Shown here: positions 8,640 to 27,264 of the stretch, piece by piece
How positions within the stretch are numbered: position 1 is the first letter of the stretch
Layout of the letters: each line of letters begins with the position of its first letter
Assembly: GCA_942493095.1 (NCBI GenBank)
Contig: OW818675.1
Coordinates: 1,230,001 to 1,262,000, forward strand
Direction: 5' to 3'
From: Candidatus Electronema halotolerans
Lineage (GTDB): Bacteria; Desulfobacterota; Desulfobulbia; Desulfobulbales; Desulfobulbaceae
DNA length: 32,000 nucleotides
The notes under the pieces: generated by a model
Database searches by the model: none
The model's input: only the letters and a program-made list of their open reading frames with translations
Told to the model about the DNA's origin: nothing
Program-made: the position numbers and the translations under genes

Positions 8640-8768
8640 GCAGAAAATGCTGGATGTTCTTTGTTTTGATATGCTATCCTAAAGCGGCCTGATTAACAAA
8701 CAAAAGCCTTTTCGCATCCTGCGCAGCCATATCTCGTATAGAGGTAAAAACGTAAAAGAGGTTTATTC

Positions 8769-10455: not shown

Positions 10456-10478
10456 TTTATTCTGACGCGGTCGTGTCG

Positions 10479-10618: not shown

Positions 10619-10653
10619 TCGTCCTTCTCCTTGCCGCATTGCCCTCTATTTTG

Positions 10654-10682
10654 TTGACAAAGCCCAGCCGCCGCCGTATCTT
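10654..10682 (+). promoter_or_regulatory. sigma70-type promoter module A (TTGACA-17-TATCTT)
   Basis: TTGACA at 10654-10659, a 17-nt spacer, TATCTT at 10677-10682. It shares extended similarity with the modules at 13284 and 17685. Confidence 0.5.
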
Positions 10683-10741
10683 GGCCTGATCAAGCAAAAT
10701 CGTTTGCATCATCATATCTTTGAATCCGCATGGAGGGCATT

Positions 10742-11812: not shown

Positions 11813-11905
11813 GATAGTGGGTTGAGAATGGGTGGCGTTGGGGAGGGCGGGTGCTTTCCCCAACAGGGGCTGTCCTTGCAATATTGCAGGGTAATATGAG
11901 GCATC

Positions 11906-12523: not shown

Positions 12524-12524
12524 G

Positions 12525-12542
12525 CTGGGCTTATAAGCCCAG
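12525..12542 (+). terminator. perfect 18-bp palindrome directly after the stop codon (possible terminator hairpin, no T-tract)
   Basis: CTGGGCTTATAAGCCCAG. Confidence 0.3.
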
Positions 12543-12644
12543 TCTAACAACTTGCCGCAGCAGCACTGTTTGCATACGTTGCGCAGGCTGCATATCTTGA
12601 TGGCTGCAAAGCATGGTAAGTATCCATAGCCCAGCTTTTAAACT

Positions 12645-12902
12645 ATGCCTGAATTAAGCAGATTCCTTGGAATAGTGATACGCATGTATCTTCGTGAACA
12701 TGCTCCTGCGCATTTCCATGCCGAGTATGGAGAATACGAAATCACGGTGGATATTGAATCAGGAGTTGTGACGGGAAAGTTTCCACGAAGAGCATTGATG
12801 GCCGTTCTTGACTGGTACGTGCTGCATCAGGATGAACTCATGGCTAACTGGAATGCTGCCATGAACAGAAAGCCTCTGTCAAAAATTGAACCATTGGAAT
12901 AG
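12645..12902 (+). CDS. DUF4160 family protein
   Basis: MPELSRFLGIVIRMYLREHAPAHFHAEYGEYE...LDWYVLHQDELMANW is the canonical DUF4160 pattern. Confidence 0.85.
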   Translation: MPELSRFLGIVIRMYLREHAPAHFHAEYGEYEITVDIESGVVTGKFPRRALMAVLDWYVLHQDELMANWNAAMNRKPLSKIEPLE

Positions 12903-12904
12903 GT

Positions 12905-13171
12905 ATGTTCACACATGTTGAGCAAGCAAAATATCTTGACGGCTATAAAGTATGGTTAGCCTTCAACGACGGAGCAGAGGGTGAAATAGACTTGTCATCT
13001 GAATTATACGGCGAGATATTTGAACCATTGAAGGATGTGTCGTATTTCAAGTCGTTCACCTTGGAAGGCCACACCCTGTCATGGAGCAACGGAGCAGATT
13101 TTGCTCCTGAGTTCCTGCGTGAGCATGTAAACTGCATTGATCGGAGAAAAGCAGTTATAGATGATAACTGA
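12905..13171 (+). CDS. DUF2442 family protein
   Basis: YLDGYKVWLAFNDGAEGEIDLS...IFEPLKD...TLSWSNGADFAPEFL is the canonical DUF2442 pattern. It starts 2 nt after the DUF4160 gene, the usual pairing. Confidence 0.85.
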   Translation: MFTHVEQAKYLDGYKVWLAFNDGAEGEIDLSSELYGEIFEPLKDVSYFKSFTLEGHTLSWSNGADFAPEFLREHVNCIDRRKAVIDDN

Positions 13172-13283
13172 CTTTGAGGAGTTGTGGATTCAACTCGCAA
13201 GTGCAACTTTTCGTATATTCACCTCACTATTGCCGCTCATCCGCTGCCCAGCCGCCGCTGCTTGCAGTAGCGGCCTATCTTCC

Positions 13284-13312
13284 TTGACAAAGCACCTGAT
13301 GCTGCCTATGCT
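13284..13312 (+). promoter_or_regulatory. sigma70-type promoter module B (TTGACA-17-TATGCT)
   Basis: TTGACA at 13284-13289 and TATGCT at 13307-13312, upstream of the SPFH gene. Confidence 0.5.
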
Positions 13313-13400
13313 GCCTGAGCAAGACCAGCATCTCTCGCCTGCCATCGTGCTTGCTGCGGGCAGGCGGGCTGTTGATTGATCAACTTACAAGGAGAACCGC

Positions 13401-15368
13401 ATGGACCGAGAAATTCAGGAACGAAAGCGACAAGGCGGCATCATGGAGCAGCTGCTCAAACTCAGGCTGCGGACCATTTTAGGCTTGCTCCTTGTTTCTC
13501 TGCCGCTCATCTATATCGGCATTTCCTTAGTCTCAATTGAAGAAGGCCATGTCGGCATTGTCTTTGCCAAAGTTGGCAGCAAGCCTGCCGTGGCAGACCG
13601 CTTCATTGTCGAGGCAGGCGAGAAAGGTTATCAGCGCGAGGTGCTGATGCCGGGCATGCGCTTCTACTGGTTCTTGGAGCCATTCTGGAAATACACGATC
13701 ACTGAGGAACCGTTTGTCAAAATCCCACCCGGCATGATCGGGGTGGTCAATGCCAAGGATGGCTATCCCATGCGGCCCGGACAAATTTTGGCTGATTCGG
13801 ATGTCTATGGCGAGGACGGCACCTTTACAATGGGGCAGAAGGGGCCGCGCTTGGAAATCCTCAAGCCGGGCGAATACCCGATCAACACTGCCTACTTGGA
13901 GGTCAAGCAGTTCCCGGCAGTGCAAATCCCGGAAGGCAGCCTTGGGGTTTTGACCCGCCTCTACGGTGAGGATCCGCCGCAGGGCACCATCCTCGTGGCC
14001 AAAGAGAGCGGCTTCCGTGGCATCATCCGGGAAGTCCTGCAACCAGGCACCTATTACATCAATCCCAAAGCCTACAAGACTGAGATCGTTGCAGCGGCCA
14101 AGATTGACAAGGGCCAGGTGGGCATCATCACCAAACGAGTGGGCAAAATTCCGCCTGAAGGCACGATCTTGGTTGATGCGAATGACGAGTTCCAAGGCAT
14201 CCAGAAGCAGGTGCTGCAGCCGGGCATGTACTACATCAATCCTTATGAAAAGGCCCTGCGCATTGAGGATGCGGTATCGGTGCCAGATGGTCATGTGGGT
14301 GTGCAGATTGCCAAGACCGGCATTGCCAAACCGGTTGATCAGCTCTTGGCTAAAGCAGGCGAGCGCGGCATTCAGGAGGACACCATGCCGCCTGGTCTCT
14401 ACTATCTCAATCCCTATGCGGTGGAAGTGGTTAATATTGACATCCGCCAGCAGCGCTATGAAATGACCTACCTTGAAGGGCAAGGCGACACCCAGCAGAA
14501 TGATGCAATCGTCTTTTATTCAGATGACGGCTTTGAAATCGCCATTGATGTGACTGTGCTCTTTCAGGTGCTGCCCAATGATGCGCCTTATGTGGTGGCC
14601 ACCATTGGCCGGCGCATTGACGACATCAAGGAGAAGATCATCCGGCCCCAGGCCCGTTCGTATGCCCGGATACTTGGTTCCCGCTACAAGGGCGAGGACT
14701 TTGTCCACGGCGCGACCAGAGAGACCTTTCAGAACGATCTGCATAAAGAGTTGCAGGCCAAAACGATAGAGAGCCGAGTGCAGATGAATCAGGCTTTGGT
14801 GCGTCATTTTGAGGTGCCGACGCAGCTCCGCCAGCCGATCACTGACAAGGTCATTGCCCTGAAGATGCAGGAGAAGTTTGAGCAGGAGCAGAAGACCCAG
14901 AAAGCCAATGCTGACTTGGCCCGTGAAAAGGAGAAGGTGAACTTTGAGTCTGCCAAGGTGGTGGCTGAGACCAAGAAGGTCAAGGCCATCATCCTGGCCG
15001 AGGAGGAGCGGGAGGTTGAGGAAATCAACGTGGCCAAGAAGGAGTTTATTGCCCAAGGCGAAGCCAAGAAGGTTCAGATCGGGGCGGACGCGAACCTGTA
15101 TCAACAGGAGAAAGAGGCTGAAGGTATTTTGGCCGTAGGCAAGGCTAAGGCAGAGGCTAAGAAGCTGGAGCTGTCTGCCTATGAGGGTGACGGCGGCCTG
15201 CGCTTTGCTGAGGTGGAAAAGGCCAAGGCTCTGGGCAGCGGCATTGAAAAGATATACTACATCCCCTCTGACATGAGCATCAACGCCATTGCCAAGGATT
15301 TCGAGAACGCCATCACCGTCGGCCTGCCAGAGCGGCAGAAGGCGGCGGCCAGTCAAACGCAGCCTTGA
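13401..15368 (+). CDS. SPFH/band-7 (flotillin-like) membrane protein with a five-fold repeated N-terminal segment and a C-terminal coiled coil
   Basis: RBS AAGGAG. One N-terminal TM helix. Five units of hVGv...G..ILv...G....L.PG.YYINP. Then the SPFH core FYSDDGFEIAIDVTVLFQV...ARSYARILGS, followed by an E/K/A-rich coiled coil. Confidence 0.85.
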   Translation: MDREIQERKRQGGIMEQLLKLRLRTILGLLLVSLPLIYIGISLVSIEEGHVGIVFAKVGSKPAVADRFIVEAGEKGYQREVLMPGMRFYWFLEPFWKYTITEEPFVKIPPGMIGVVNAKDGYPMRPGQILADSDVYGEDGTFTMGQKGPRLEILKPGEYPINTAYLEVKQFPAVQIPEGSLGVLTRLYGEDPPQGTILVAKESGFRGIIREVLQPGTYYINPKAYKTEIVAAAKIDKGQVGIITKRVGKIPPEGTILVDANDEFQGIQKQVLQPGMYYINPYEKALRIEDAVSVPDGHVGVQIAKTGIAKPVDQLLAKAGERGIQEDTMPPGLYYLNPYAVEVVNIDIRQQRYEMTYLEGQGDTQQNDAIVFYSDDGFEIAIDVTVLFQVLPNDAPYVVATIGRRIDDIKEKIIRPQARSYARILGSRYKGEDFVHGATRETFQNDLHKELQAKTIESRVQMNQALVRHFEVPTQLRQPITDKVIALKMQEKFEQEQKTQKANADLAREKEKVNFESAKVVAETKKVKAIILAEEEREVEEINVAKKEFIAQGEAKKVQIGADANLYQQEKEAEGILAVGKAKAEAKKLELSAYEGDGGLRFAEVEKAKALGSGIEKIYYIPSDMSINAIAKDFENAITVGLPERQKAAASQTQP

Positions 15369-15429
15369 TGTTGCAGAGCTTGCAGGAACGGGGAGAGGCT
15401 GTTAGCGTTGTGGTCGAATTCAATCCCCT

Positions 15430-16161
15430 TCACGATTTCTGCACATCCAGCGAGAAACAGAGATGCCCGAACCGCTGCTCGATATAATCAAGCAACGTGT
15501 AGATGAGCAGGACAACCCCGATCATCTCCAAGAACTCCTCAATCGTGAACAGCACGATATAGGTGACGGTGTAATAGCCGTGCAATTCAGCCTCTTTTCC
15601 GCCGAGCATATCAAATCCCACAGCCCCGCTCAGAAAGATAATCGCGGAAAGGATCAAGAGAACAGTTGTCTTGCGGGGAAGGCGAAGAATAAAGCGAAAA
15701 TAGAGCAGCCCCAGGATGATCATCAGGATGCTGTAGGGAATAACCCAAGGAAAATAGAGCAAGCCGCTTGCCTCAAGAATCCCTGTTGATTTGATGTATT
15801 CCGCTGTGTAATCACCGAGTCTTTCATGCAGGACAAAGGATTCATCTAAGGAGAGAAAAAGAAAAACAGCGGCAAGACCGAGCCAGTAACGGCGCTTACT
15901 TCCCTGTTTTTCCTCTAACGAGGCGATACAGAAAAAGAGAAGGGAAGATAAAAAGAGGGCCAAGCCTGAATACAAGGAAGGGATATTCTTCTCTATATCC
16001 AGATCAACATAGCTTGTAATGTACCTCAGATCCTGATTCCCGGTATAGAGAAGAACTGCCTGGGCTATACAGTGCAGCACGGTCAACAGGATGACAAATG
16101 CCAGCAAAAAGAGCGCTGTTTCGCGGGGATGAATTTTTAGCTGAAACATAGGCAGAACCAT
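15430..16161 (-). CDS. hypothetical polytopic membrane protein
   Basis: About 6-7 hydrophobic helices (ALFLLAFVILLTVLH, LYSGLALFLSSLLFFCIA, WLGLAAVFLFLSL and others). AT-richer. Same strand as the Gly/Tyr-rich genes and downstream of them. Confidence 0.65.
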   Translation of the reverse strand: MVLPMFQLKIHPRETALFLLAFVILLTVLHCIAQAVLLYTGNQDLRYITSYVDLDIEKNIPSLYSGLALFLSSLLFFCIASLEEKQGSKRRYWLGLAAVFLFLSLDESFVLHERLGDYTAEYIKSTGILEASGLLYFPWVIPYSILMIILGLLYFRFILRLPRKTTVLLILSAIIFLSGAVGFDMLGGKEAELHGYYTVTYIVLFTIEEFLEMIGVVLLIYTLLDYIEQRFGHLCFSLDVQKS

Positions 16162-16320
16162 AATCTGAAAGTAATTGAAAGGGAAAGGAGAACGGTTTAT
16201 GCTTGTATCGAAGCTGGCTGCTGAGGCAGTGCAATAAATAACCTCCCGATATTCATGAGGAGCCGCCTCAGACTTTTCAGACAGCTCCTTCTTGTCATGC
16301 GCTGGCAGGCTTAATCGTTG

Positions 16321-16674
16321 TTAGTAGCTATAGCCTCTGTATTCATACCCATTGTTATTGTTGTAGTAAGGTGTTCCGGGCGTTCTTGGCGTTCCGGGCA
16401 CTCCATAAGCTCCTGGTGCTCCATAAGCTCCGGGCACTCCATAAGCACCGGGTGTTCCATAAGCACCGCGATATTCGTAGCGGCTGCCGCGATAACCATA
16501 ACTTCCATTATTGTAGTACGTTCCTGGATAAGCACCGCGATATTCATAGCGGCTGCCGTAGCCATAGCCGCGTTCATAGCCGCTGCCGTATCCGCCGCTG
16601 CCCTGGGCAGTTGCGAAAAGTGCCAGTACGAGGAATGATCCGGCCAAGGCGATAGCTGCTGTTGTCTTTTTCAC
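16321..16674 (-). CDS. secreted Gly/Tyr-rich low-complexity protein, copy 1
   Basis: GTG start 7 nt after AGGAGG. Signal peptide MKKTTAAIALAGSFLVLALFATA. The mature 94 residues use only 11 amino-acid types, with 23 Tyr and 25 Gly by my count. Internal repeats are SRYEYRGAY x2 and GAYG(V/A)PG x4. Confidence 0.75.
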   Translation of the reverse strand: MKKTTAAIALAGSFLVLALFATAQGSGGYGSGYERGYGYGSRYEYRGAYPGTYYNNGSYGYRGSRYEYRGAYGTPGAYGVPGAYGAPGAYGVPGTPRTPGTPYYNNNNGYEYRGYSY

Positions 16675-16855
16675 GAGGAATCCTCCTTTTGTGGGTTAAA
16701 GAGAGCGAATTGCTCTTGTGTATGATTATATAATAGCAAAGAAAAGATTAACGGAAGATGAACTTGAAACTTTTTTTGCTTTCCAGGAAACAAGGAGCCG
16801 CCTCAGACTTTTCAGGCAGCTCCTTCTTGTCATGCGCTGGCAGGCTTAATCGTTG

Positions 16856-17209
16856 TTAGTAGCTATAGCCTCTGTATTCATACCCATTGTTATTGTTGTA
16901 GTAAGGTGTTCCGGGCGTTCTTGGCGTTCCGGGCACTCCATAAGCTCCTGGTGCTCCATAAGCTCCGGGCACTCCATAAGCACCGGGTGTTCCATAAGCA
17001 CCGCGATATTCGTAGCGGCTGCCGCGATAACCATAACTTCCATTATTGTAGTACGTTCCTGGATAAGCACCGCGATATTCATAGCGGCTGCCGTAGCCAT
17101 AGCCGCGTTCATAGCCGCTGCCATATCCGCCGCTGCCTTGGGCAGTTGCGAAAAGTGCCAGTACGAGGAATGATCCGGCCAAGGCGATAGCTGCTGTTGT
17201 CTTTTTCAC
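16856..17209 (-). CDS. secreted Gly/Tyr-rich low-complexity protein, copy 2 (identical protein)
   Basis: Same as copy 1. The two CDS differ at two positions, both synonymous (CAG/CAA Gln, TAC/TAT Tyr). Confidence 0.75.
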   Translation of the reverse strand: MKKTTAAIALAGSFLVLALFATAQGSGGYGSGYERGYGYGSRYEYRGAYPGTYYNNGSYGYRGSRYEYRGAYGTPGAYGVPGAYGAPGAYGVPGTPRTPGTPYYNNNNGYEYRGYSY

Positions 17210-17684
17210 GAGGAATCCTCCTTTTGTGGGTTAAAGAGAGCGAATTGCTCTTGTTTATAATTATAAGATAGCAAAGAAAAGATTAACGGAAGATTAACTA
17301 TAATAACTATAATAATGGTTCGATAATTTTTTTTTTGTATCGGATAGCTGCCAGACACTAACTGTTTAAAATTGTTACAACTGATCAGTTTTCAGTTGCT
17401 TTGATTAACATGTTGAAATTGCTAAATTAAAAGTTATCCACAGAACCATTGTATAAAACTTTTTTAGCAGTTTCAGGCATCGCGGCGATGCGGCGGGTGA
17501 GCTTTGTGTTGCCAGCGACTTCGTCAAGCACTGCGATTATTCCCTCTCTTTCCTGCTCCCCCACATGCCTCATCTGCCCTCACCTCGATCATACGTTTGA
17601 GATTTCCTCAACATACGTTCCACCCTGCCGCCGCACCTCATCCGCCGCCCGCCTACAGCATTTTGCAATAGCTGCCTCTTTTTC

Positions 17685-17713
17685 TTGACAATCAGACAGG
17701 TACTCCGTATGCT
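17685..17713 (+). promoter_or_regulatory. sigma70-type promoter module C (TTGACA-17-TATGCT)
   Basis: TTGACA at 17685-17690 and TATGCT at 17708-17713. It points into the SPFH remnant and the MTHFR gene. Confidence 0.4.
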
Positions 17714-17727
17714 GCCTGATTGTTGCC

Positions 17728-18030
17728 GAAACCAAGAAGGTCAAGGCCATCATCCAAGTTGAGGAGGAACGGGAGGTGGAGAAAATTAACAGGGCCACGA
17801 AGGAGTTCTTTGCTCAGGGCGCGGCTAAAAAAATTCAGATCAGGGCCGACGCAAACCTGTATCAGCAAGAAAAAGATGCTGAAGGCATCTTGGCAGCGGC
17901 ATTGAGAAAATCTATTACATCCCCTCTGACATGAGCATCAACGCCATTGCCAAGGACTTTGAGAACGCCATCACCGTCGGCCTGCCAGAGCGGCAAGGCG
18001 GCGGCCCAGACTCAGACTCAGCCATAACTG
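17728..18030 (+). pseudogene. orphan, decayed copy of the SPFH gene 3' end
   Basis: ETKKVKAIIQVEEEREVEKINRATKEFFAQGAAKKIQIRADANLYQQEKDAEGILA aligns with residues from ETKKVKAIILAEEEREVEEINVAKKEF of the intact gene (nt 14967 onward). An out-of-frame deletion of about 100 nt is present (relative to about 15134-15236). The tail IEKIYYIPSDMSINAIAKDFENAITVGLPERQ is still recognisable in a shifted frame. No start codon. Confidence 0.75.
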
Positions 18031-18033
18031 ATC

Positions 18034-19506
18034 ATGCTCCGAACTTCGCTGAACACGCCGCAGGAATTCACCATCACTTATGAGCTGGTGCCGGGTCAGG
18101 GCTGCGGCGGCAAGCGGCTGGACCGGCTCCTCGACTTCTCCCGCAAGATCAAGGAAGATGGGCGAATCAAGGCCCTGTCGATCACTGACAATCCGGGCGG
18201 CAATCCTGCCTTGGCTCCCTCAGCCATTGGCGAGGAACTGCTGCGCATAGGCATTGAGCCGCTTATCCACTTTTCATTGAAGGACAAGAACCGGAGCCAG
18301 ATATTCAGTCATATCTACCTCTATCAGCGGCTGGGCCTGCATTCGTTGCTGGTGCTGGGCGGCGACTTTCCCAAGCGCGGGTATTACGGGCAGGCCCGGC
18401 CTGTCTATGACTTGGACAGCATCCAGACCCTCCAGCTCATGCACGAAATGGAGACCGGGGTCTATCCTGAGCCGAACGGCGACAGTCCGCCGCCCCGGCT
18501 CTTCAAGGGCTGCGTGGTCTCGCCCTTTAAGCAGACCGAGGCCGAGCAGGTCTGGCAGTATGCCAAGCTCCTGCACAAGGTGCGGGCCGGTGCTGACTTC
18601 ATCATCAGTCAGCTCGGCTTTGATCTGAGCAAATTCCGCGAGCTGATGCGCTTTCTGCACCAGCACAACATCAAGCTGCCGGTACTGGCCAACATCTTTA
18701 TTCCCTCGCTGCCCGTGGCGCGGGCTATGGCCGCAGGCCGGGTGCCGGGTGTGCTGCTTGCGGAAACCTTAGTCAAGGAGATGGAAGCTGAGGAGGCAGA
18801 TGGACGGCTTGAGCAGGCCCGTCTTGACCGGGCCGCCTTCATGATTGCTTGGGCCAAGCGGTGCGGCTGTCAAGGCGTGCATCTGGGCGGCAACAAGCTG
18901 CGTTTCCGTGATGTTCAAACTGTTTTGAACAAGTTCGAGGAATTGGACCATCTGCCAGAGCTGCCAGAGACAGGGAATGATTATCCTCTGTCAAAAACGT
19001 GGTATTTTTATCAGGCAGGCGGGATTGAAGAAACACCGCTGCAACCGGGCCAACGGCAGGGCACAGTCTGGCTCTCAGCTCTCAGTCATCCCTTATTCTT
19101 TGAGCAGCGCAATCTGAGTAGCAGGCTCTTTGCCCGCTTCTGCCTCTTCTGCGCCCAGGGCAAAGGCCGCACCGCTGCCCTGACCTTGCTGGAGCGGGCA
19201 ATCAAGCGGCTGCTTTTCACCTGCCGGATGTGCGGCGATTGCACCTTGTCGCGATCCGCCTATCTTTGCCCGCAGTCAGGCTGTCCCAAACAGCTGATCA
19301 ATGGCCCCTGCGGCGGCAGCCGCTTTGGTTTCTGCGAAGTCCATCCTCAACGCCGCTGCTTCTGGGTCCGGGTTTATGAGCGGCTTGATCCTCAGACCAC
19401 ACTGGCTGATTTGGCTGCGCTGCCGCACCTGCCGCCCAAGGACTGGGCCTTGGACAAAACCTCCTCGTGGATCAACTATTTCAGAAGCAAGCCAAGTGCT
19501 GTCTGA
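18034..19506 (+). CDS. metF: methylenetetrahydrofolate reductase fused to a C-terminal Cys-rich MetV-like (MTHFR_C) domain
   Basis: The N-terminal 300 aa are MTHFR-like (ELVPGQG...ALSITDNPGGNPAL...LLVLGGD). The C-terminus CRMCGDCTLSRSAYLCPQSGCPKQLINGPCGG matches the zinc-ribbon domain of MetV-type subunits. Confidence 0.8.
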   Translation: MLRTSLNTPQEFTITYELVPGQGCGGKRLDRLLDFSRKIKEDGRIKALSITDNPGGNPALAPSAIGEELLRIGIEPLIHFSLKDKNRSQIFSHIYLYQRLGLHSLLVLGGDFPKRGYYGQARPVYDLDSIQTLQLMHEMETGVYPEPNGDSPPPRLFKGCVVSPFKQTEAEQVWQYAKLLHKVRAGADFIISQLGFDLSKFRELMRFLHQHNIKLPVLANIFIPSLPVARAMAAGRVPGVLLAETLVKEMEAEEADGRLEQARLDRAAFMIAWAKRCGCQGVHLGGNKLRFRDVQTVLNKFEELDHLPELPETGNDYPLSKTWYFYQAGGIEETPLQPGQRQGTVWLSALSHPLFFEQRNLSSRLFARFCLFCAQGKGRTAALTLLERAIKRLLFTCRMCGDCTLSRSAYLCPQSGCPKQLINGPCGGSRFGFCEVHPQRRCFWVRVYERLDPQTTLADLAALPHLPPKDWALDKTSSWINYFRSKPSAV

Positions 19507-19729
19507 GTCCGGCCCAGCGGTCGCCACTTGCCATTCTTGAATGGTTAGGCGCAATTTTGTCGATTTCCCTGCCATTTTAAGCAGCCCGTTGCTTGCTGCC
19601 AAACGTCCCTGCGGCTGAATTATTTTTTATCACCATTTATTATCTCGTGTAAAATCAAGGCTTCTTGCCGCAATCGCCTAACAGCGGCAGGACTGGCTCT
19701 TGTTTTGCATTGCACAAAGCAGTCGGCTG

Positions 19730-19760
19730 CGTTATACCGTTATGTCAAAATATCATAACG
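19730..19760. promoter_or_regulatory. ModE-box-like operator (CGTTAT repeated, with inverted ATAACG)
   Basis: CGTTATAC CGTTAT-N11-ATAACG, about 110 nt upstream of modE. It resembles the E. coli modA operator half-sites (CGTTAT...ATAACG) as I remember them. Confidence 0.4.
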
Positions 19761-19871
19761 CAGGCGGACAGCACACTGGATGGGCTGTTGCGGGAAAGAT
19801 GATCAGCTAACTGGCTGAGAAGCGCAGCCAGCATGCGCAGGGAATTTTGTCAGAGCTTCCAAGAGAAAACT

Positions 19872-20657
19872 ATGTCAGAACCCATTGACCTGCTCTACGA
19901 ACTCATCGGCTGGTCCGGCAGCAGTCCGACTGTCCGGCTTCTTCAGGCGTTGGAGCAAACCGGTTCAATCAACAGGGCTGCCCAATCCATAGGCATGCAA
20001 TACAGAACTGCTTGGCAGAAGATTTGTCATCTCAACAATTTGTTATCTTACCCCCTCTTGACGAGGCAAACCGGAGGCAGCGGCGGCGGCGGCTCTGTGT
20101 TCACTGAAGAAGGCAGGAAACTGCTCAACCGAATTAAATTGCTGCAACGCGAATTTAAGCAGTTTAAACAGCTGGCTGCGGACGATCCGCAGGAGGCTCT
20201 GGATATCATCAAAACACTCAGGAGAATGGAAATGAAACTCAGTGCCCGGAATGTATGGTTTGGAGTGGTGGCAGGCATTGATCATGGCGCAGTGAACAGC
20301 GTAGTTTCTGTGCAGCTCAAGGGCAATGACAACATCACTTCCATGATAACCGACAGCTCTGTAAAACGATTGGCTCTTGCGCCGGGGAAAGAAGTGATGG
20401 CGATTGTCAAAGCCTCCAATGTCATGCTTGGCTGCGACATGGATTTCACTAAAATTTCCGCCCGAAACATCCTTACTGGAACTGTCAGCAACATTGTCTC
20501 TGGTGTGGTTAATGATGAAATAACTATTGAACTGCCTGGTGGCAGCACAGTCACCTCAATCATCACCTCAGCCAGCGTCAAGAGACTGAGTATAACGGTC
20601 GGTAAAGCAGTTTCCGCAATTATCAAGGCATCGGATGTGCTGCTGGCTGTAGCCTGA
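19872..20657 (+). CDS. modE: molybdate-responsive regulator ModE (HTH plus two Mop/TOBE domains)
   Basis: The N-terminus has TGSINRAAQSIGMQYRTAWQKI...GGSGGGGSVFTEEG, the ModE signature. Two TOBE repeats follow (SARNVWFGVV...KASNVML and SARNILTGTV...KASDVLL). Start is uncertain: 19833 is in frame upstream. Confidence 0.85.
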   Translation: MSEPIDLLYELIGWSGSSPTVRLLQALEQTGSINRAAQSIGMQYRTAWQKICHLNNLLSYPLLTRQTGGSGGGGSVFTEEGRKLLNRIKLLQREFKQFKQLAADDPQEALDIIKTLRRMEMKLSARNVWFGVVAGIDHGAVNSVVSVQLKGNDNITSMITDSSVKRLALAPGKEVMAIVKASNVMLGCDMDFTKISARNILTGTVSNIVSGVVNDEITIELPGGSTVTSIITSASVKRLSITVGKAVSAIIKASDVLLAVA

Positions 20658-20678
20658 TGTAACCAAAGGAGAGAGGAG

Positions 20679-22007
20679 ATGAAGAAGAAAATGCTGTCCG
20701 CAGGAGGAATGTTGCTGCTTTTTGCCGCTGCCGTCTCTGCCGCAGAGACAGGCCGGAAAACAGAACTTGCCGTGCAAATCCGGCAGCGGCTGGAATCGCT
20801 GGAAAACTTCAACGACAAATTTTACGGCACAGAACCCAAGCTCGGTGACTCATCCGACACCTATCTGCTCAGTCGCCTGCGCGTGGGCCTGACCCATCAA
20901 TTCAACCAATATTTCGTCGGCAAGATCAGCTTGCAGGACAGCCGTGTCTTTGGCTGGGCCTTTGACGACCAGGACTGGGTGAACAGCGAGTTCAGCGGCA
21001 TGGAAAACAATCCCCAGAGCGACCCGCTGGAGCTGGGAGAAACTTGGCTGCAATACACGCAGGGCGGACTGAGTGCCAAGGCGGGCCGTCAGTCGATCAG
21101 TTATGGCAACAACCGGGTTTTCGGGCCGGGCGAGTGGAAGAATTCCGGCAAATGGGTCTGGGATGCAGTCAAGGCGAGCTATGCCTGCAACAAGAACTGG
21201 GCAGAAGTCTTTTACGGCGAAACCATGCTCCATGAGCCGGATGTCTTCAGTTTGGATCATCGGCACGGCTATGTTGGCGCAGGACTGTACGGCCATGTTC
21301 AGGCGACAGATTTTCTCGCTGTCGAGCCGATTGCCGCCAGCAAGAACAATGATGAAAGCGACGACTATGCGGAAAAGGAGCTGTATTACTACGGCGCACG
21401 GCTGCTGCTGGAGCTGGACAGCTTCACTGCGGACGGCACGTATATGCAGCAGACTGGCGACATCACAGCTGAGAATGGCGGAACGACAGACTCTGATGCC
21501 TATGGCTGGAATCTTGATCTGGAATACCGCTTTCATCCACAATGGGCAATTGGCAGCACGGTCAGTTTTGCGACTGGCGACGACAAAGACACGCCTGACA
21601 ACGAACGCTTTGATGCCGTCTATGGCGCATCAGACAAGTATTACGGCCTGATGAACTTCATGGCTTGGTCAAATATGCTTGATTACGGCCTGCTGCTCAA
21701 ATTCCAGCCCCAGAAAAAACTGCAAGTGATGGCGGAATATCACCAGTTTTATGCGGATCGGATCAATGACAAATGGAAGAGCTACAAGAGCGGCCTGCAA
21801 ACCGAAAGCGACCATTACGGCAATGAGATTGATCTGGCCGTCAAATGGAATCTCAACAAGACGTGGAAGTTTTATGCCGGGGCTGGCATTTTCATGCCCG
21901 GCGATGCGATTGAGGAGGCTGTCGCTGCTGGGCAGGATTTCATCACTGACGACACCGCTTACTCTGGTTTCTTGCAAATAACCTATTCCTTCAGCCATGT
22001 TTTGTAA
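20679..22007 (+). CDS. outer-membrane beta-barrel porin, alginate-export-like family
   Basis: Strong RBS AAAGGAGAGAGGAG. Signal peptide ending AAVSAAE. An alternating aromatic/polar beta-strand pattern runs to the C-terminal FLQITYSF. The family call is tentative. Confidence 0.65.
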   Translation: MKKKMLSAGGMLLLFAAAVSAAETGRKTELAVQIRQRLESLENFNDKFYGTEPKLGDSSDTYLLSRLRVGLTHQFNQYFVGKISLQDSRVFGWAFDDQDWVNSEFSGMENNPQSDPLELGETWLQYTQGGLSAKAGRQSISYGNNRVFGPGEWKNSGKWVWDAVKASYACNKNWAEVFYGETMLHEPDVFSLDHRHGYVGAGLYGHVQATDFLAVEPIAASKNNDESDDYAEKELYYYGARLLLELDSFTADGTYMQQTGDITAENGGTTDSDAYGWNLDLEYRFHPQWAIGSTVSFATGDDKDTPDNERFDAVYGASDKYYGLMNFMAWSNMLDYGLLLKFQPQKKLQVMAEYHQFYADRINDKWKSYKSGLQTESDHYGNEIDLAVKWNLNKTWKFYAGAGIFMPGDAIEEAVAAGQDFITDDTAYSGFLQITYSFSHVL

Positions 22008-22008
22008 A

Positions 22009-22728
22009 ATGAAACGATCCTTTGCTGTGGCTCTTGTTTTCACTCTTCTGGCCATATCTTCTGCGCAGGCGGGCGAGCTGCGTCTGCTTTCCGCCGGAGG
22101 CTACAAGAAATCAATGCAGGCCGTCCTTGCCGCCTATAAAGAGCAGACCGGCCAGCAGGCTGAGGTGGGTTATGGCAACATGCGTCAGGTTCTTTCGCAG
22201 GCCAAGCTGACCGGCCAAGCGGCCTTGGTGATAGGTGACGAGAAGTTTCTCCGGCAGGAAAACATCTTTGCCAGTTTCCAACCAATCGGCGAGGGCAAGC
22301 TGGTGCTGGCTTGGGCGCAGGGCAGTCCGGCAATCAGCAAGCCAGAAGACCTGCTCCGGCCAGAAGTGGCCCGCATTGCCCACCCGGACAAAAGCAAGGC
22401 CATTTTTGGCAGGGCGGCAACAGAATGGCTGCGCAGCCAGCAGCTTGACCAGAAGCTGCAAGCCAAGCTGATTCAGGCGGCCACAGTGCCGCAGGTTTCC
22501 TCCTATCTGGTGGCCAAAGAAGTGGATGCCGGTTTCATCAGCATGACCGATGCCATTGGTTTGGGCGGCAAGCTCGGCGGCTACCTGCCGCTGCCTTCGG
22601 GTTATGAAAAAATTGTCATTGTCGCCGGAAGCATCAAAGGACACGAGAACGATGCGGCGGCCAAAGATTTCCTAGCCTTCCTGACCGGGCCGCAGGCACG
22701 GCGCATCTTCAAGGAGCATGGCATGTGA
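22009..22728 (+). CDS. modA: molybdate/tungstate ABC transporter periplasmic binding protein
   Basis: I chose ATG 22009, just after the porin stop. Signal peptide MKRSFAVALVFTLLAISSAQA. The body resembles ModA-type binding proteins (LSAGGYKKSMQAVLAAYKEQTG...YGNMRQVLSQ). Confidence 0.78.
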   Translation: MKRSFAVALVFTLLAISSAQAGELRLLSAGGYKKSMQAVLAAYKEQTGQQAEVGYGNMRQVLSQAKLTGQAALVIGDEKFLRQENIFASFQPIGEGKLVLAWAQGSPAISKPEDLLRPEVARIAHPDKSKAIFGRAATEWLRSQQLDQKLQAKLIQAATVPQVSSYLVAKEVDAGFISMTDAIGLGGKLGGYLPLPSGYEKIVIVAGSIKGHENDAAAKDFLAFLTGPQARRIFKEHGM

Positions 22729-23411
22729 GCTGCGCAGACTGGACACTGGCAGGCTGCGGCCTGACACCGCTTTGGATCAGCCTGCGGGTTCTGCTGGGCA
22801 GCGCGATCCTGCTGCTTGTCGCCGGGCTGCCCTTGGCCATGCTCCTGAGCCGACCCGGCTGGCGGGGACGGATGCTGCTGGAAATCGTTGTCACTCTACC
22901 GTTGATCTTTCCGCCAGTGGCCATCGGCTTCTTCTTTCTCTTAGCCTTGGGCCGCAAAGGCTGGATCAACCGTCTGCTGCCGCCAGAGCAGACTTTGGAA
23001 ATCATTTTCTCCTTTCAAGCCCTGCTGCTCGCCAGTGTGCTGGCCGGGCTGCCTCTGATGGTCAAACCGGTGCAGGCGGCCTTGGAAAAGGAAACTCGTC
23101 CGCTGGTCGAGGCGGCCTACAGCTTGGGCAAAAACCGCTGGCAGACGTTCTGGCATGTCACCCTGCCCGGCATCAGTCGGGCCGTGGCAGCCGGACTGAC
23201 GCTCGGCTTGGGCAGGGGCATGGGCGAGGTCGGCATGAGCCTGATGCTGGGCGGCAATCTGATCGGCAAGACCGAAACCCTGTCCTTGGCCATTTACAAC
23301 GCAGTCTTGGACGGCAACTTTCACTGCGCCATGATTTATGCGTGGATTCTGGCCGGACTGGCCCTGCTGCTCTTTGCCGGGCTGCGCTGGTTCGGAGGAC
23401 GGACAGGCTGA
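22725..23411 (+). CDS. modB: molybdate ABC transporter permease
   Basis: ATGTGA overlap with modA. Polytopic. The EAA loop is EAAYSLGKNRWQTFWHVTLPG. Confidence 0.88.
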   Translation: MSCADWTLAGCGLTPLWISLRVLLGSAILLLVAGLPLAMLLSRPGWRGRMLLEIVVTLPLIFPPVAIGFFFLLALGRKGWINRLLPPEQTLEIIFSFQALLLASVLAGLPLMVKPVQAALEKETRPLVEAAYSLGKNRWQTFWHVTLPGISRAVAAGLTLGLGRGMGEVGMSLMLGGNLIGKTETLSLAIYNAVLDGNFHCAMIYAWILAGLALLLFAGLRWFGGRTG

Positions 23412-23436
23412 ATTATGCTGAGGCGGCAGGCTGGTT

Positions 23437-23465
23437 GTTGACAAACTGTAGCTTGCACGCTACAA
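23437..23465 (+). promoter_or_regulatory. TA-module promoter (TTGACA-17-TACAAA) with an embedded inverted repeat GTAGC-N6-GCTAC
   Basis: TTGACA at 23437-23442 and TACAAA at 23460-23465. The toxin ATG at 23473 lies only about 7 nt past the -10 element, so the mRNA may be near-leaderless. The inverted repeat is at 23447-23462. Confidence 0.45.
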
Positions 23466-23472
23466 AATATTC

Positions 23473-23784
23473 ATGATCTACGCAATAGAAACCACTGGGG
23501 CATTCGATGGCTGGCTGAAAAAGCTGCGGGACCGTAAAGCCGTTCTTGCTGTTCTCAATCGTCTCGACCGAGCCAAGCTGGGTAATTTTGGCGATGTCAA
23601 ACCAGTCGGAAACGGCATCAGCGAAATGCGGATATTCGTCGGGCCGGGCTATCGTGTCTATTACGTCATCCGTGATGAACGGATAATCCTTCTGCTTTGC
23701 GGTGGCGACAAATCGACTCAAACACGGGATATAGCAAAGGCAAAAGAGATGCTGAAGCACATGGGAGAAGATCATGGCGATTGA
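23473..23784 (+). CDS. addiction-module killer protein (RelE/ParE superfamily, HigB-like)
   Basis: FDGWLKKLRDRKAVLAVLNRLDRAKLGNFGDVKPVGNGISEMRIFVGPGYRVYYVIRDERIILLLCGGDKSTQTRDI is the canonical pattern of this family. Confidence 0.85.
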   Translation: MIYAIETTGAFDGWLKKLRDRKAVLAVLNRLDRAKLGNFGDVKPVGNGISEMRIFVGPGYRVYYVIRDERIILLLCGGDKSTQTRDIAKAKEMLKHMGEDHGD

Positions 23785-24052
23785 AATAAAAGACTACAAT
23801 CCGTTCGACTATCTGGAGACAAAAGAAGAGATCAGCGAATATCTCAACAATGCGTATCTTGACGATGATCCAAGAGTATTTCTTGTGGCACTTGGATATT
23901 TGGCAAAGAAACAGGGAATGAGCGAAGTCGCTAAAAAAGCTGGCCTGAACAGGGAAAGTTTATACAAGGCTCTTGCTGGAGATGGCAATCCGAGATTTTC
24001 CACGGTGAGCAAAGTGATCAAGGCTCTTGGTTGCAAGCTGGCAATTGCGTGA
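23774..24052 (+). CDS. addiction-module antidote protein (HigA-like HTH)
   Basis: DPRVFLVALGYLAKKQGMSEVAKKAGLNRESLYKALAGDGNPRFSTVSKVIKALG is the canonical pattern. It overlaps the toxin gene by 11 nt. Confidence 0.85.
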   Translation: MAIEIKDYNPFDYLETKEEISEYLNNAYLDDDPRVFLVALGYLAKKQGMSEVAKKAGLNRESLYKALAGDGNPRFSTVSKVIKALGCKLAIA

Positions 24053-24075
24053 ATATTTTTCTGGAGGAAGTTGCA

Positions 24076-24921
24076 ATGATCTTTTTCACCACCCAAGAAA
24101 TCGAAGCATGGATCAACGAGGATGCGCCTTTGGTTGATCTGACCAGTCATTTGCTCAAGATCAGCGATCAGCCCGCCCGGCTGACGGTTGTCACCCGCCA
24201 CCCGACCCGCGTTGCCCTGACTGAAGAGGCCGGACGAATCTTCGAGATTCTCGGCGGCACAGTCAAAAGTATGGTTGCTTCCGGGCAAGATGCGGCGGCC
24301 AAGACCGTGATCTTGGAGGTGGAAGGGCCAGCCGCTGCCCTGCACCGGGGCTGGAAAGTTGCTATGAATCTGCTGGAATATATGTGCGGTGTGGCAGGCC
24401 GGACAGCAGAGATGGTCAAAAAGGTGGAAGCCTGCGCCAAGATTCCTCTGCTCGTGACCCGCAAGCATCAGCCGGGCCTGAAAAAGCCGCTGCTCAAAGC
24501 TGTTCTGGCAGGCGGCGCGTATGCGCACCGGCTCGGCCTGTCGGAAACGGTGCTGATCTTTGCCAATCATCTCCGGCTGCTCGGCGGCAGGGAAGCCTTG
24601 CCAGCCCTATTAGCAGAGATGAAGGCTGCGGCCTGCGAACAGAAAATCACCGTGGAATGCGATGACTTGACCCAAGCAATGCAAGCGGCTGAGGCGGGCG
24701 CGGATTCAGTTCAGTTTGACAAGGTGCCGCCGGAGCAGCTTGCGGCTTGGTGCGCGGAATTGAAGAGCCGCTTTGCTCATCTGATTATCCTGAGCGCGGG
24801 CGGAGTCGGGCCGGACAATGTGCAGGACTATGCCCGCACTGGCGTGGACGGCATTGTTCTCAGCTCGATTTTTCATGCCAAGCCCGCTGATCTTGGCGTG
24901 ACCATTGAGCCGCTGCCATGA
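24076..24921 (+). CDS. modD: ModD (quinolinate-phosphoribosyltransferase-like molybdenum transport protein)
   Basis: ATG 24076 follows GGAGGA. MIFFTTQEIEAWINEDAPLVDLTS and the QPRT-like body (TRKHQPGLKKPLLKAVLAGGAYAHRLGLSE...ECDDLTQAMQAAEAGADSVQFDK) are present. Confidence 0.78.
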   Translation: MIFFTTQEIEAWINEDAPLVDLTSHLLKISDQPARLTVVTRHPTRVALTEEAGRIFEILGGTVKSMVASGQDAAAKTVILEVEGPAAALHRGWKVAMNLLEYMCGVAGRTAEMVKKVEACAKIPLLVTRKHQPGLKKPLLKAVLAGGAYAHRLGLSETVLIFANHLRLLGGREALPALLAEMKAAACEQKITVECDDLTQAMQAAEAGADSVQFDKVPPEQLAAWCAELKSRFAHLIILSAGGVGPDNVQDYARTGVDGIVLSSIFHAKPADLGVTIEPLP

Positions 24922-25586
24922 AAGCACTCCATTTTGACCTGCGCGGCAGGCTGGCCAGCGCAGCCGGGCCACTGAACGTGCATTGGCGCAAAGAACTGGC
25001 CCCTGGCAGCACCATTGTTCTCAGCGGCGAGTCAGGCAGCGGCAAGACCACCCTGCTGCGTGCGCTCTGCGGCCTGCCCGCGCAGGTGAGCGGCACAGTG
25101 GCTTGGGGAGAGGCACTCTGGCAGACCGAGGAAAAAATCCGCGTCCCGATTCAGCGGCGGCGGCTCGGCCTGATGTTTCAGCAGTATGGCCTGTTCCCGC
25201 ACAAGACCGTGCGCCAGCAGCTTGAATTTGCCTACAAAGACCCGGAGCGAGTCGAGCTGTGCCTGCGCAAGACCGAGCTGCTCCAGTTTGCCGATGTTCT
25301 GCCCAGCCGTCTTTCCGGCGGTCAGCAGCAGAGGCTGGCCTTGGCCCGCAGTCTGATGCGGCGGCCCGACCTGCTCATTCTTGACGAGCCGGTCAGCGCA
25401 TTGGATGTGCAGTTCCGGGAAAAAATGATCAACTGGCTGGCCGAGGAACGCAGCCAGCGGCCCTTCACCCTGCTGGTGGTCAGCCATCATCCGGCGGAGT
25501 GGGATCCGCTTTGTCCGGCCCAGTGGCAGATGGCGCAGGGGGAATTGTCAGATTTGCCAGCAGAGAGGCACGACCGCAGCCATTGA
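24918..25586 (+). CDS. modC: ABC transporter ATPase, short form without a C-terminal Mop/TOBE domain
   Basis: Walker A GESGSGKTTLL, signature LSGGQQQRLALARSL, Walker B LLILDEP. ATGA overlap with modD. Confidence 0.85.
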   Translation: MKALHFDLRGRLASAAGPLNVHWRKELAPGSTIVLSGESGSGKTTLLRALCGLPAQVSGTVAWGEALWQTEEKIRVPIQRRRLGLMFQQYGLFPHKTVRQQLEFAYKDPERVELCLRKTELLQFADVLPSRLSGGQQQRLALARSLMRRPDLLILDEPVSALDVQFREKMINWLAEERSQRPFTLLVVSHHPAEWDPLCPAQWQMAQGELSDLPAERHDRSH

Positions 25587-25626
25587 GCTGCTGTGAATGA
25601 AATCATTCGGCAAAAGCCTGACACGT

Positions 25627-25825
25627 CTAACTCAGCATGTCCAACCGACGCTGATGCCGTCCGCCGGAGAACTCTGTTTTCACCCAAGTGCGCACGATCT
25701 CGCAGGCCAGCTCCGGGCCGATCACCCTGCCGCCGAGACAAAGCACATTGGCATTGTTGTGCTCGCGGCTCATCCGGGCCGTGAAGGCTTCGTGGCAGAG
25801 CGCAGCCCGGATTTCCCGGTTGGCG
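25627..25825 (-). pseudogene. orphan copy of the rpiB 3' end
   Basis: It encodes [63 protein letters not shown], which differs from the intact rpiB C-terminus at one residue. There is no 5' part. It is the direct-repeat partner of 26838-27044. Confidence 0.8.
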
Positions 25826-26801
25826 TTATTTTTCAATAATTAAATACAAATAATCGTCAAAAAAACCTTCATGAATATGCGGATACATTTTCGTCAAGAC
25901 AGACTTGTATTTCCTCTCAATCCATGTTTTCTTTGCTTTGTACCGCCACCCTTCAAACGAGGACAAGCTGCTTAATATATTCAATTTGCTCGCACTGTCA
26001 ATCGTCATTTCAATTTCATGAAAGCTCACTCCTCGTCCTCTTCTTAAAAAAATGTTCCATTTTCAGTTCATTATATTCTGTATATAACTCTTTAAAATTT
26101 TCTCTTGAACTGAATTTTGAATACAAAAAGGCAAGTTCGTTTGGAAGCCAGTTGAAAAAAGGCAGTCTTGATGTGTGACTGTCAAAATACCATAGTCGAT
26201 TTGGTGTTTCAGTAATAATTAGCAATCCTCCAGAAGGAAGCATATCCCAAGAGTCCTTTAGAGACGATAACCTTTCATCTATTGTCATGTGTTCAAGACA
26301 GGCGAAAAAAACAATCATATCAAAACGTTCTGCTTCAAAAAAAGTTCTAATTTCTTGAGCATTCATCGCTTTGAATTCCGCATTCACCTCATAAACTTTA
26401 GCTCGTTGTTTTGCAACAAGCAATGCGCCATCATCAATATCAACACCTGTAACTCTTGCTCCTTGTTCAGCAAAAGCGATAGATGAAGAACCTGTGCCGC
26501 ATCCTATCTCTAGGATATTTTTATTTTTTAAAGAACAGGCATCATCTATCCAAGGAATAACTGTTTTTCTATCACTTTCAAGGCGTTCATGCAAGTGGGC
26601 AGCAATATCTGCCTTATATGCTTCAGGGGAATAACATTCTTTGCTTCTCCATCCTGTATGATAATTTTTTTCGAGAGAGGCTTTGATTAAGGATGCCCCA
26701 TCTTCTTGAATGGATATAAAATTTTCAGATAAATGTTTTGGAACAGGAAATAGAACTTTTCTTGCAACACGCTTAACAGGTTCTTGGATATATCTCAACA
26801 T
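25826..26801 (-). pseudogene. class I SAM-dependent methyltransferase split by a frameshift at an A7/T7 tract
   Basis: SAM motif ILEIGCGTGSSSIAFAEQGARVTGVDID. ORFs 26016-26801 and 25826-26029 overlap. Removing one base of the homopolymer at 26046-26052 joins them into one ORF of about 324 aa (...EHFLRRGRGVSFHEIEMTIDS...). Strongly AT-rich. Confidence 0.7.
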
Positions 26802-26838
26802 GATATCTTGACCATTCTGAATTTAATCTGTGCCCCTT
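25826..26838 (-). mobile_element. 1-kb AT-rich promoterless cassette flanked by 200-bp direct repeats of the rpiB 3' end
   Basis: The repeats are 25626-25825 and 26838-27044, with about 3 substitutions and one 6-nt indel. The cassette begins at the rpiB stop codon and ends exactly at the methyltransferase stop codon. No recombinase gene is present. Confidence 0.45.
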
Positions 26839-27264
26839 CTAACTCAGCATGTCCAACCGACGCTGATGCCGTCCGCCGGAGAACTCTGTCCGCACCCAAG
26901 TGCGCACAATCTCGCAGGCCAGCTCCGGGCCGATCACCCTGCCGCCGAGACAAAGCACATTGGCGTTGTTGTGCTCGCGGCTCATCCGGGCCGTGAAGGC
27001 TTCGTGGCAGAGCGCAGCCCGGATTTCCCGGTACCGGTTGGCGGCAATGGACATGCCAATGCCAGTGCCGCAGATGAGAATGCCGCGCTCGCAAGCCCCT
27101 GATTTCACCAAGGCGCAGACTTTTTCGGCAAAATCAGGATAATCCACGGATTGGCAATCATGACAGCCCACAGATTCAACTTCCACCGCCAAATCTTGAA
27201 GGCAGCCAAGCACCACCTGCTTCAGCTCAAAACCGCCGTGATCACTGCCCAGTGCAATTTTCAT
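26839..27264 (-). CDS. rpiB: ribose-5-phosphate isomerase B
   Basis: MKIALGSDHGGFELK...ILICGTGIGMSIAANR...[16 protein letters not shown] is canonical RpiB/LacAB. I preferred ATG 27264 (GAGGA upstream) over the upstream TTG at 27279. Confidence 0.9.
   Translation of the reverse strand: MKIALGSDHGGFELKQVVLGCLQDLAVEVESVGCHDCQSVDYPDFAEKVCALVKSGACERGILICGTGIGMSIAANRYREIRAALCHEAFTARMSREHNNANVLCLGGRVIGPELACEIVRTWVRTEFSGGRHQRRLDMLS

Follow-up and report, generated by a model that had tools for sequence, protein, structure and literature searches.

Duplicated 3' gene ends at rpiB and SPFH in Candidatus Electronema halotolerans as probable scars of two separate old recombination events

Duplicated gene tails at rpiB and SPFH

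The subject of this analysis is a stretch of 32,000 nucleotides from the freshwater cable bacterium Candidatus Electronema halotolerans (contig OW818675.1, positions 1,230,001 to 1,262,000; the whole stretch is called the window below), in which two intact genes, rpiB and a gene of the SPFH/Band_7 family, are each followed by other coding sequence and then by an orphan, a truncated second copy of their own 3' end. The best reading of the data is that both duplicated gene tails are genuine and that they are the scars of two separate old recombination events. More precisely, two independent, homology-driven integrations that added DNA beside a resident gene, followed by decay and without the involvement of a dedicated mobile element, are given a probability of about 0.6. 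This makes the two loci a new instance, at rpiB and SPFH, of an already known type of genome scar.

Both structures are additions or rearrangements relative to those found in relatives (contigs L001 and L002 for rpiB; Electronema sp. KV for SPFH). An earlier note on this DNA, made from the sequence alone, had described the two cases as the same insertion topology and proposed one recurring process. A unifying process behind them is not supported, since their anatomies differ and neither a border motif nor a terminal inverted repeat is common to both. At rpiB, a repeat running from the middle of the gene to its stop codon is accompanied by one gene; at SPFH, a whole second gene copy with its promoter was present and was later gutted.

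The rpiB locus

Both parent genes are intact, as the earlier note had stated. The SPFH product matches Band_7, and the rpiB product matches LacAB_rpiB (1.5e-60 in a Pfam scan) and is encoded identically, with a shorter start, by contigs L001 and L002 according to an exact-protein look-up. The same kind of look-up with the listed starts of the open reading frames (ORFs) for rpiB, SPFH and the methyltransferase (MT) gene next to rpiB returned zero matches.

The last 205 nt of rpiB (26839-27043) are the upstream copy of a direct repeat, which the repeat finder and pairwise alignment placed at 25619-25820 versus 26831-27032 with 96% identity. The orphan has 199 nt instead of the 205 nt of the intact gene, owing to a 6-nt in-frame deletion. 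The reading frame is retained, and the resulting 69-aa ORF still matches LacAB_rpiB (3.8e-27). Classification as a pseudogene in the sense of a disabled second copy with its own regulatory region is not applicable here, because the orphan stays in frame. Both copies end with TAG (26839-26841 in the intact gene, 25627-25629 in the orphan), and the homology stops no more than 8 nt past the stop codon, with partial matches there. Beyond this point the orphan adjoins the native flank and the convergent modC gene. The observation that the duplicates are truncated 3' ends whose homology stops at the stop codons is thus borne out by the alignments of both loci, where the repeats end within a few bases of it.

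The insert between the two copies consists of exactly one gene, MT, and a 37-nt spacer, and the duplicated unit measures 1212 bp. The stop codon of MT (TAA, 25826-25828) directly abuts the orphan; the junction reads ...GAAAAATAA followed by CGCCAACCGG, the latter being the start of the orphan. In the window, MT is split by one additional T in a T7 run near 26052 into two ORFs (26016-26801 and 25826-26029), the first of 261 aa, and the other 67 codons continue in a different frame. Homologues of MT have around 325 aa (P0001 is 98% identical), and contig L054 (sample ERR9669565, 99.7% identical) encodes an intact 324-aa protein. The T7 run of the window against the T6 run of this sister contig could reflect a true inactivation or a homopolymer sequencing error.

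Comparison with relatives gave both empty and occupied sites. Contigs L001 and L002 are around 99% identical to the window over fabG-acpP-fabF-rpiB, and in them the stop codon of rpiB is immediately followed by what stands downstream of the orphan in the window. The window's own strain is represented by the short-read contigs L003, L004 and L054, which break exactly at the repeat edges, as is expected if the repeat is genuine. Contigs L055 and L056 (around 85% identical) carry the full rpiB-MT-orphan block on single contigs, with an orphan of 130 nt and an NTP-transferase gene downstream. Contig L058 (around 82% identical) carries the last ~70 nt of rpiB, a truncated MT, an orphan of 210 nt and the flank, with SHMT downstream. 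The sequences downstream of the block therefore differ among the three lineages (window, L055/L056 and L058). The junction of the 130-nt orphan of L055 lies at the second of two CGCCAA motifs and can be derived by a microhomology deletion between them. A distant MT homologue (L065, 72% aa identity) is located just upstream of glyA and has no rpiB repeats next to it, and searches of viral contigs and plasmids for MT relatives found no viral and no close plasmid relatives.

The identity between the window and L055 is 85.0% for MT, 86.3% for fabG, 88.0% for fabF and 87.3% for rpiB. Since the divergence of MT is about that of fabG, fabF and rpiB, the insert co-diverged with the host genes. This suggests that the rpiB block was passed on together with its flanks across lineages that are 12-18% diverged, and it does not support recent mobility.

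Moreover, the two repeat copies are 93-97% identical within a genome, versus 88-90% between orthologous copies across genomes. Lineage-specific substitutions are present in both copies, as with ...GGACATGCTGAGTTAG, which occurs twice in the window, and ...GGATATGTTGAGTTGA, which occurs twice in L055. The greater closeness of copies within a genome and these shared substitutions indicate gene conversion. The simplest reading would be one old insertion at rpiB with continuing gene conversion between the repeats, and crossing-over between them would occasionally remove the unit, as in L001 and L002. Because the repeats are homogenised within each lineage, their percent identity cannot be used as a clock. 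Gene conversion also blurs the signal of donor versus recipient origin of the tails; only a Lys codon shared by the orphans of the window (AAA) and L055 (AAG), where the intact genes have Arg or Thr, sets the orphans apart. Together with the substitutions common to both copies of a lineage, this codon points to one old origin plus gene conversion.

When the protein database was searched with the 69-aa orphan, numerous C-terminal pieces of RpiB (~70 aa) came up, which were rejected as a sign of widespread orphans. These fragments (P0241-P0358) mostly begin at the conserved internal Met71 (MSIAANR...), and the length peak is probably explained by gene calling on truncated genes, because the starts sit at this residue. 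Alternatively, they may stem from other lineages in which similar repeats cause the contigs to break.

The SPFH locus

The part of SPFH repeated in the orphan is 14961-15368, and the direct repeats are 14961-15133 versus 17722-17894 (81% identity) and 15230-15337 versus 17888-17995 (94%). The intact copy ends with TGA (15366-15368) and lies 2.3 kb upstream of the relic, which ends with TAA (18025-18027), 6 nt before the ATG of the MTHFR-like gene. The description of both orphans as bare 3' ends is correct for rpiB but not for SPFH, where a diverged copy (P') of the SPFH promoter region (P) had been missed. The copied segment spans 83 nt, is 74% identical with gaps, and lies at 17637-17719. Both P and P' have the form TTGACA-17-TATGCT and are the two best sigma-70-like matches in the region, and P' is placed to read into the SPFH remnant and MTHFR. 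The SPFH orphan is therefore a promoter plus a 3' end, with ~1.64 kb between them lost (the equivalent of 13319-14960). A promoter of its own, this large internal loss, the 95-nt and 2-nt deletions and the persistence of an intact copy are all features of a pseudogene.

In Electronema sp. KV, MTHFR begins 11 nt after SPFH. The window is colinear with this SPFH-MTHFR junction over 17882-19487 (the end of the orphan, the 6-nt spacer and MTHFR) with 85% identity, which indicates that the orphan occupies the ancestral position. Furthermore, P' matches the KV SPFH promoter over 59 nt in addition to its 83-nt match with P, so that the orphan represents the remains of a complete promoter-plus-gene unit. 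The best match of the MTHFR-like protein is in Candidatus Electronema sp. KV (88% identity), with weaker matches across Electronema, Electrothrix and other Desulfobulbaceae. Contig L003 confirms the junction from the orphan to MTHFR with 100% identity.

The sequence between the two SPFH copies had been considered AT-rich foreign DNA, as at rpiB. That view holds for MT, which has a GC content of 36%, but not for the SPFH cargo, which is made up of a core membrane protein of cable bacteria and a Gly/Tyr-rich (GY) protein. Identity with Electrothrix is 85-87% for the 243-aa membrane protein, versus around 60% for MTHFR, and the conservation of the membrane protein across cable bacteria shows that this cargo is not foreign. 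A recent transfer of its gene from Electronema sp. JM (88.6% nucleotide identity versus 72.5% for MTHFR) was rejected for the same reason, as the protein is equally conserved in Electrothrix.

Several further features of this cargo were recorded. The 243-aa protein is a multi-pass membrane protein without a Pfam family, its database labels are inconsistent ("peptidase M48", "multidrug transporter"), and it is strongly constrained, found mainly in cable bacteria and paired with the GY-rich secreted protein. In JM (L014), one copy of the GY-rich gene was called, and the GY and membrane-protein genes lie beside MTHFR in another arrangement. In the window, a tandem duplication with a period of 535 bp (16258-17300, ~98-100% identical) encodes two identical 117-aa proteins with signal peptides; it could be a very recent duplication or an assembly expansion.

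Regarding the age of the orphan, the earlier note had read different ages from the identities of the two duplicates (97% at rpiB, 80% at SPFH). Neither value can be taken in this way, since the rpiB repeats evolve in concert and the SPFH orphan diverged mostly as a separate allele. In the first orphan segment (174 nt, 14961-15134), to which the following values refer, the proportions of synonymous (pS) and non-synonymous (pN) differences between the intact copy and the orphan are 0.62 and 0.08 (pN/pS 0.13); between the intact copy and KV they are 0.245 and 0.022. The changes specific to the orphan comprise 12 synonymous and 7 non-synonymous ones, distributed 3/4/12 over the codon positions. 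Nine informative sites join the orphan with the allele of contig L064, one with the intact copy of the window and one with KV; the intact copy groups with KV. It seems that during most of its divergence the orphan was still functional and evolved under purifying selection within another allelic lineage. This selection signature and the allele grouping led to the rejection of a simple tandem duplication of SPFH in the recent past.

The sequence grouping at this locus contradicts the orthology based on synteny, and the intact gene is itself a mosaic. A comparison of window 13231-15376 with L064 and L006 puts the switch near 14050-14900: the 5' third of the gene is 95-98% identical to L064 and only 53-86% to KV, and near the 3' end the identity to KV reaches 91-97%. 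Over the whole gene, pS versus KV is 0.405 for SPFH and 0.417 for MTHFR. Judging from these sequence patterns, homologous recombination between strains has evidently been active at the SPFH locus.

Contig L064 (88.5% nucleotide identity) has P-SPFH, the membrane protein and GY in the same order as the window, and it ends in the GY region, before the position of P'. In its reverse complement (1-100), a palindromic unit (CGGACTTGC...ACGTAAGTCC) is repeated several times ahead of the SPFH promoter; in the window, the only trace of this unit (CATACGTTCC) stands before P'. A metagenome scan with SPFH yielded four loci only, none of which contains the span from SPFH to MTHFR.

Search for recombinases and border motifs

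No integrase, resolvase or transposase domain was found by Pfam in 20 window ORFs, which include all the ORFs of the inserts and the flanking islands, in agreement with the statement that neither insert encodes a recombinase. The search for shared border motifs that had been proposed was carried out at the four junctions and gave none, and no terminal inverted repeats were found at the boundaries of either cargo. Neither the Rfam nor the tRNA scan of the window gave a hit, and a tRNA-type attachment site is therefore absent from it. Finally, a protein-level self-search of 24 window genes returned only the rpiB and SPFH orphans.

With two different anatomies and neither border motifs nor terminal inverted repeats, neither a single recurring process nor a trans-acting integrase finds support. 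Among the three origins that had been suggested (such an integrase, recombination-mediated capture of DNA carrying gene ends, or erosion of larger islands), it is the capture that fits best.

Proposed mechanism

The joining mechanism and the order of events can be reconstructed as follows. At both loci, homologous DNA from a related strain would have been integrated beside the resident copy rather than replacing it, by a homologous junction on one side and an illegitimate one on the other; topologically, the entry of a circularised fragment by a single crossover would amount to the same. The contexts of donor and recipient diverge from the stop codon onwards, which would explain why the homology ends there.

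At rpiB, an ancestor of several Electronema-like lineages would have received an rpiB 3' end together with the low-GC MT gene. The resident 3' end would have been kept and displaced downstream, becoming the orphan. Afterwards the block would have been inherited vertically, RecA-type gene conversion keeping the repeats of ~205 nt alike, crossing-over between them deleting the 1212-bp unit in some strains, and MT decaying in some lineages.

At SPFH, two alleles, each with its promoter, could have come into tandem around the conserved pair of genes for the membrane protein and the GY protein. The copy adjacent to MTHFR, from which it is separated by an ancestral intergenic spacer of only 6-11 nt, would later have lost ~1.64 kb internally and gained frameshifts, leaving a promoter and a 3' end as the leader of MTHFR. 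To judge by its position, P' may drive MTHFR, formerly co-transcribed with SPFH, and this may explain the survival of the relic.

Several points weigh against this reconstruction. Past the stop codon, the contigs with an empty site extend for 84 nt (L001) and 30 nt (L002), and L002 in particular might be a graph shortcut. Only 174 nt underlie the arguments from selection and phylogeny at the SPFH orphan, and no independent contig spans 17425-17966 of the window, where P' and the first orphan segment lie. A fully eroded island that once bore an integrase would give an identical picture at rpiB. Campbell-type integration of a circle, homology-facilitated illegitimate recombination and unequal sister-chromatid exchange are indistinguishable without donor sequences and the original junction microhomologies. 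The analysis covers 32 kb, and further orphan ends may exist elsewhere in the genome.

Alternative explanations

Both structures could instead have started as duplications within the genome, of the gene end at rpiB and of the whole gene at SPFH, produced by unequal exchange and followed by the insertion of unrelated genes and the decay of the spare copy. The pseudogene lesions of the SPFH orphan agree with this, and the recent 535-bp tandem duplication in the SPFH cargo implies that such events occur here. This origin is nevertheless unlikely, because over the 174 nt compared the SPFH orphan groups with the allele of another lineage and diverged under purifying selection, because at rpiB it would require one foreign gene to have inserted precisely at the junction of the duplication, and because the window and L055 orphans have a Lys codon in common that the intact genes lack.

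Another explanation would be that the two loci are the left and right attachment scars (attL/attR) of eroded integrase-type islands that supplied a replacement gene tail, in the style of e14 at icd/icdC, the integrase having been lost or acting in trans. The topology at rpiB is indeed identical to icd-e14-icdC (PMC13626634), the composition of MT is foreign, and alleles that carry or lack the insert occur together at 99% identity. It is rather improbable all the same, considering that no recombinase was found in the inserts or the scanned ORFs, that the rpiB insert is exactly one coding sequence and 37 nt with no other island remnants, and that MT co-diverges with its flanks. Moreover, the SPFH orphan bears a promoter, stems from a full, once-functional gene copy and is preceded by a cargo of core genes, and no border sequence common to both cases was found.

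More speculatively, the rpiB block could be a self-propagating cassette that depends on RecA only, in which recombination between the repeats frees a 1212-bp circle (rpiB tail plus MT) that re-enters a similar rpiB by a single crossover. If true, this would explain both the polymorphism within a species and the structural conservation across lineages with different downstream neighbours, and only in this case would a new biological mechanism be implied. Presence and absence of the block inside one species, the high similarity of the repeats, the recurrence of the structure in three lineages with different downstream flanks and the minimal unit of one gene and a homology arm are all in its favour. 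On the other hand, the divergence of MT tracks that of the host genes, so that inheritance looks vertical. MT also has a frameshift in the window and is truncated in L058, so that selection on it is not obvious, its distant homologue beside glyA (L065) has no rpiB repeats, and the circle junction was not observed; the idea is thus regarded as quite improbable.

An assembly artefact, by strain variants or repeat-induced mis-joins in the metagenome assembly, might be suspected from the short-read contigs of the same strain that break at the repeat edges and from the MT frameshift within a homopolymer. It is nonetheless hardly credible, given that independent assemblies from other samples and lineages each have MT, orphan and flank within one contig (preceded by the full rpiB in L055 and L056, and by the final ~70 nt of rpiB in L058), that L064 spans P-SPFH, the membrane protein and GY, that L003 confirms the orphan-MTHFR junction, that the repeat copies differ by indels and substitutions, and that P' and the first orphan segment, with a divergence of 19-26% from the parent sequences, are not a collapsed duplicate. 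Insertion of a transposon, an insertion sequence or a miniature inverted-repeat transposable element was discarded, as there are no inverted repeats at the cargo boundaries and the duplications are of 205 nt and more than 400 nt instead of a few bases.

Gene order and other features of the window

The features of the two loci are listed in Table 1. The gene order of the window is hypF, an AT-rich island, SPFH, the 243-aa membrane protein and the two GY-rich genes, followed by MTHFR, modE, a porin gene, modA, modB, a toxin-antitoxin pair, a QRPTase-like gene and modC. In the convergent direction, the minus strand carries etfA, fabG, acpP, fabF, rpiB and the methyltransferase gene.

Table 1. Features of the SPFH and rpiB loci, in window coordinates.
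Feature	Position	Strand	Remarks
Promoter region P of SPFH	13236..13318	+	-35 TTGACA and -10 TATGCT at 13284-13312
Intact SPFH/Band_7 gene	13401..15368	+	655 aa; Band_7 match
243-aa membrane protein	15430..16161	-	Converges on SPFH; conserved core gene of cable bacteria
Two tandem gene copies, 117-aa Gly/Tyr-rich secreted protein	16258..17300	-	Genes 16321-16674 and 16856-17209
P', diverged copy of the SPFH promoter	17637..17719	+	-35/-10 at 17685-17713; directly against the orphan
Orphan SPFH 3' end	17722..18027	+	Codons ~521-655; 95-nt deletion near 17895 and 2-nt deletion near 17996
MTHFR-like gene (MTHFR + C-terminal domain)	18034..19506	+	Ancestral downstream partner of SPFH
Orphan rpiB 3' end	25627..25825	-	Pfam model positions 73-138 + stop; 96% identical to parent
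Class I S-adenosylmethionine (SAM)-dependent methyltransferase (MT) gene	25826..26801	-	Pfam Methyltransf_25/11/31; 36% GC
AT-rich spacer, rpiB stop to methyltransferase ATG	26802..26838	-	37 nt; homologous spacers in L055 and L058
Intact rpiB	26839..27264	-	141 aa from ATG 27264; ORF list extends to TTG 27279

Other features of the window lie outside the two loci. A low-GC island (42-51%) extends over 8500-13200, from hypF to the SPFH promoter, and contains DUF4365, an HU-like fusion protein, unknowns and a DUF4160/DUF2442 pair; the end of hypF was not found to be repeated. Within it, between the 385-aa and HU-like genes, there is a near-perfectly adjacent inverted repeat at 10483-10614, with 65-nt arms that are 71% complementary and a 2-nt loop. 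A Gp49-like toxin and an HI1420-type antitoxin (23473-24052, 47% GC) lie in the molybdate operon, with modB on one side and the QRPTase-like gene on the other, and the pair is also present in the 100%-identical contig L004. Finally, a small island at the edge, downstream of etfA (30842-31830, 42% GC), encodes a protein with an Mrr-like restriction endonuclease domain and a PIN-domain protein.

Significance

These results mean that the pattern of an intact gene, an insert and an orphan tail need not indicate an integrative element. In Candidatus Electronema and its relatives, ordinary homologous and illegitimate recombination between related strains would be enough to put DNA beside resident genes, and the leftover repeats can outlast speciation through gene conversion and generate presence/absence polymorphisms. 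Concerning annotation, both orphan fragments should be labelled as pseudogene remnants and the methyltransferase of this strain as a probable pseudogene. The retained promoter copy P' is a testable candidate promoter for the MTHFR-like gene.

Comparison with known systems

Among integrase-type islands, E. coli K-12 offers the example of the prophage e14 at icd, with its icdC pseudogene (PMC13626634; Hill et al. 1989 as cited there). As in the loci described here, the host gene remains intact through an alternative 3' end, an orphan C-terminal fragment lies at the far side of the insert, and when the insert is lost, gene and orphan are recombined. Direct repeats of the 3' end at both ends of the insert are found at rpiB, and at SPFH only with the added promoter copy. 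Nevertheless, e14 measures 15 kb, has its own site-specific recombinase and is excised upon SOS induction, whereas here a 1-kb gene without a recombinase is inherited vertically. Since the recombinase is absent and mobility was not found, neither locus can be assigned to the integrase-island class.

Campbell-type insertion-duplications, and merodiploids that arise during natural transformation, also resemble these loci. In them, too, the direct repeats are the homologous segment flanking the added DNA, and the structure is unstable by recombination between the repeats (PMC3784515). Those cases are laboratory-made or very recent, in contrast to the persistence through speciation and the concerted evolution of the repeats seen here.

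Orphaned 3' ends from additive recombination without an integrase have been documented at Rhs and type VI secretion system (T6SS) loci (PMC5361080), and the displacement of C-terminal ends in Rhs, contact-dependent inhibition (CDI) and T6SS effector-immunity loci has been attributed to homology-facilitated illegitimate recombination (PMC5361080 and references therein). The likeness lies in a complete gene followed by one or more new downstream genes and the displaced old 3' end, with no integrase involved. In those systems, one junction is homologous and the other illegitimate, and the arrays are later spread by ordinary recombination. This layout without a recombinase is found at rpiB, and only loosely at SPFH, where the promoter was kept. 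The genes concerned here are a housekeeping gene (rpiB) and a scaffold gene (SPFH) instead of polymorphic toxins, the logic of cognate immunity is absent, and the tails are near-identical rather than functionally distinct.

On the other hand, the SPFH orphan, with its large internal deletion, two frameshifting deletions and an intact copy nearby, also resembles an ordinary pseudogene relic. It differs from one in having retained a consensus-like promoter and the exact ancestral junction with MTHFR.

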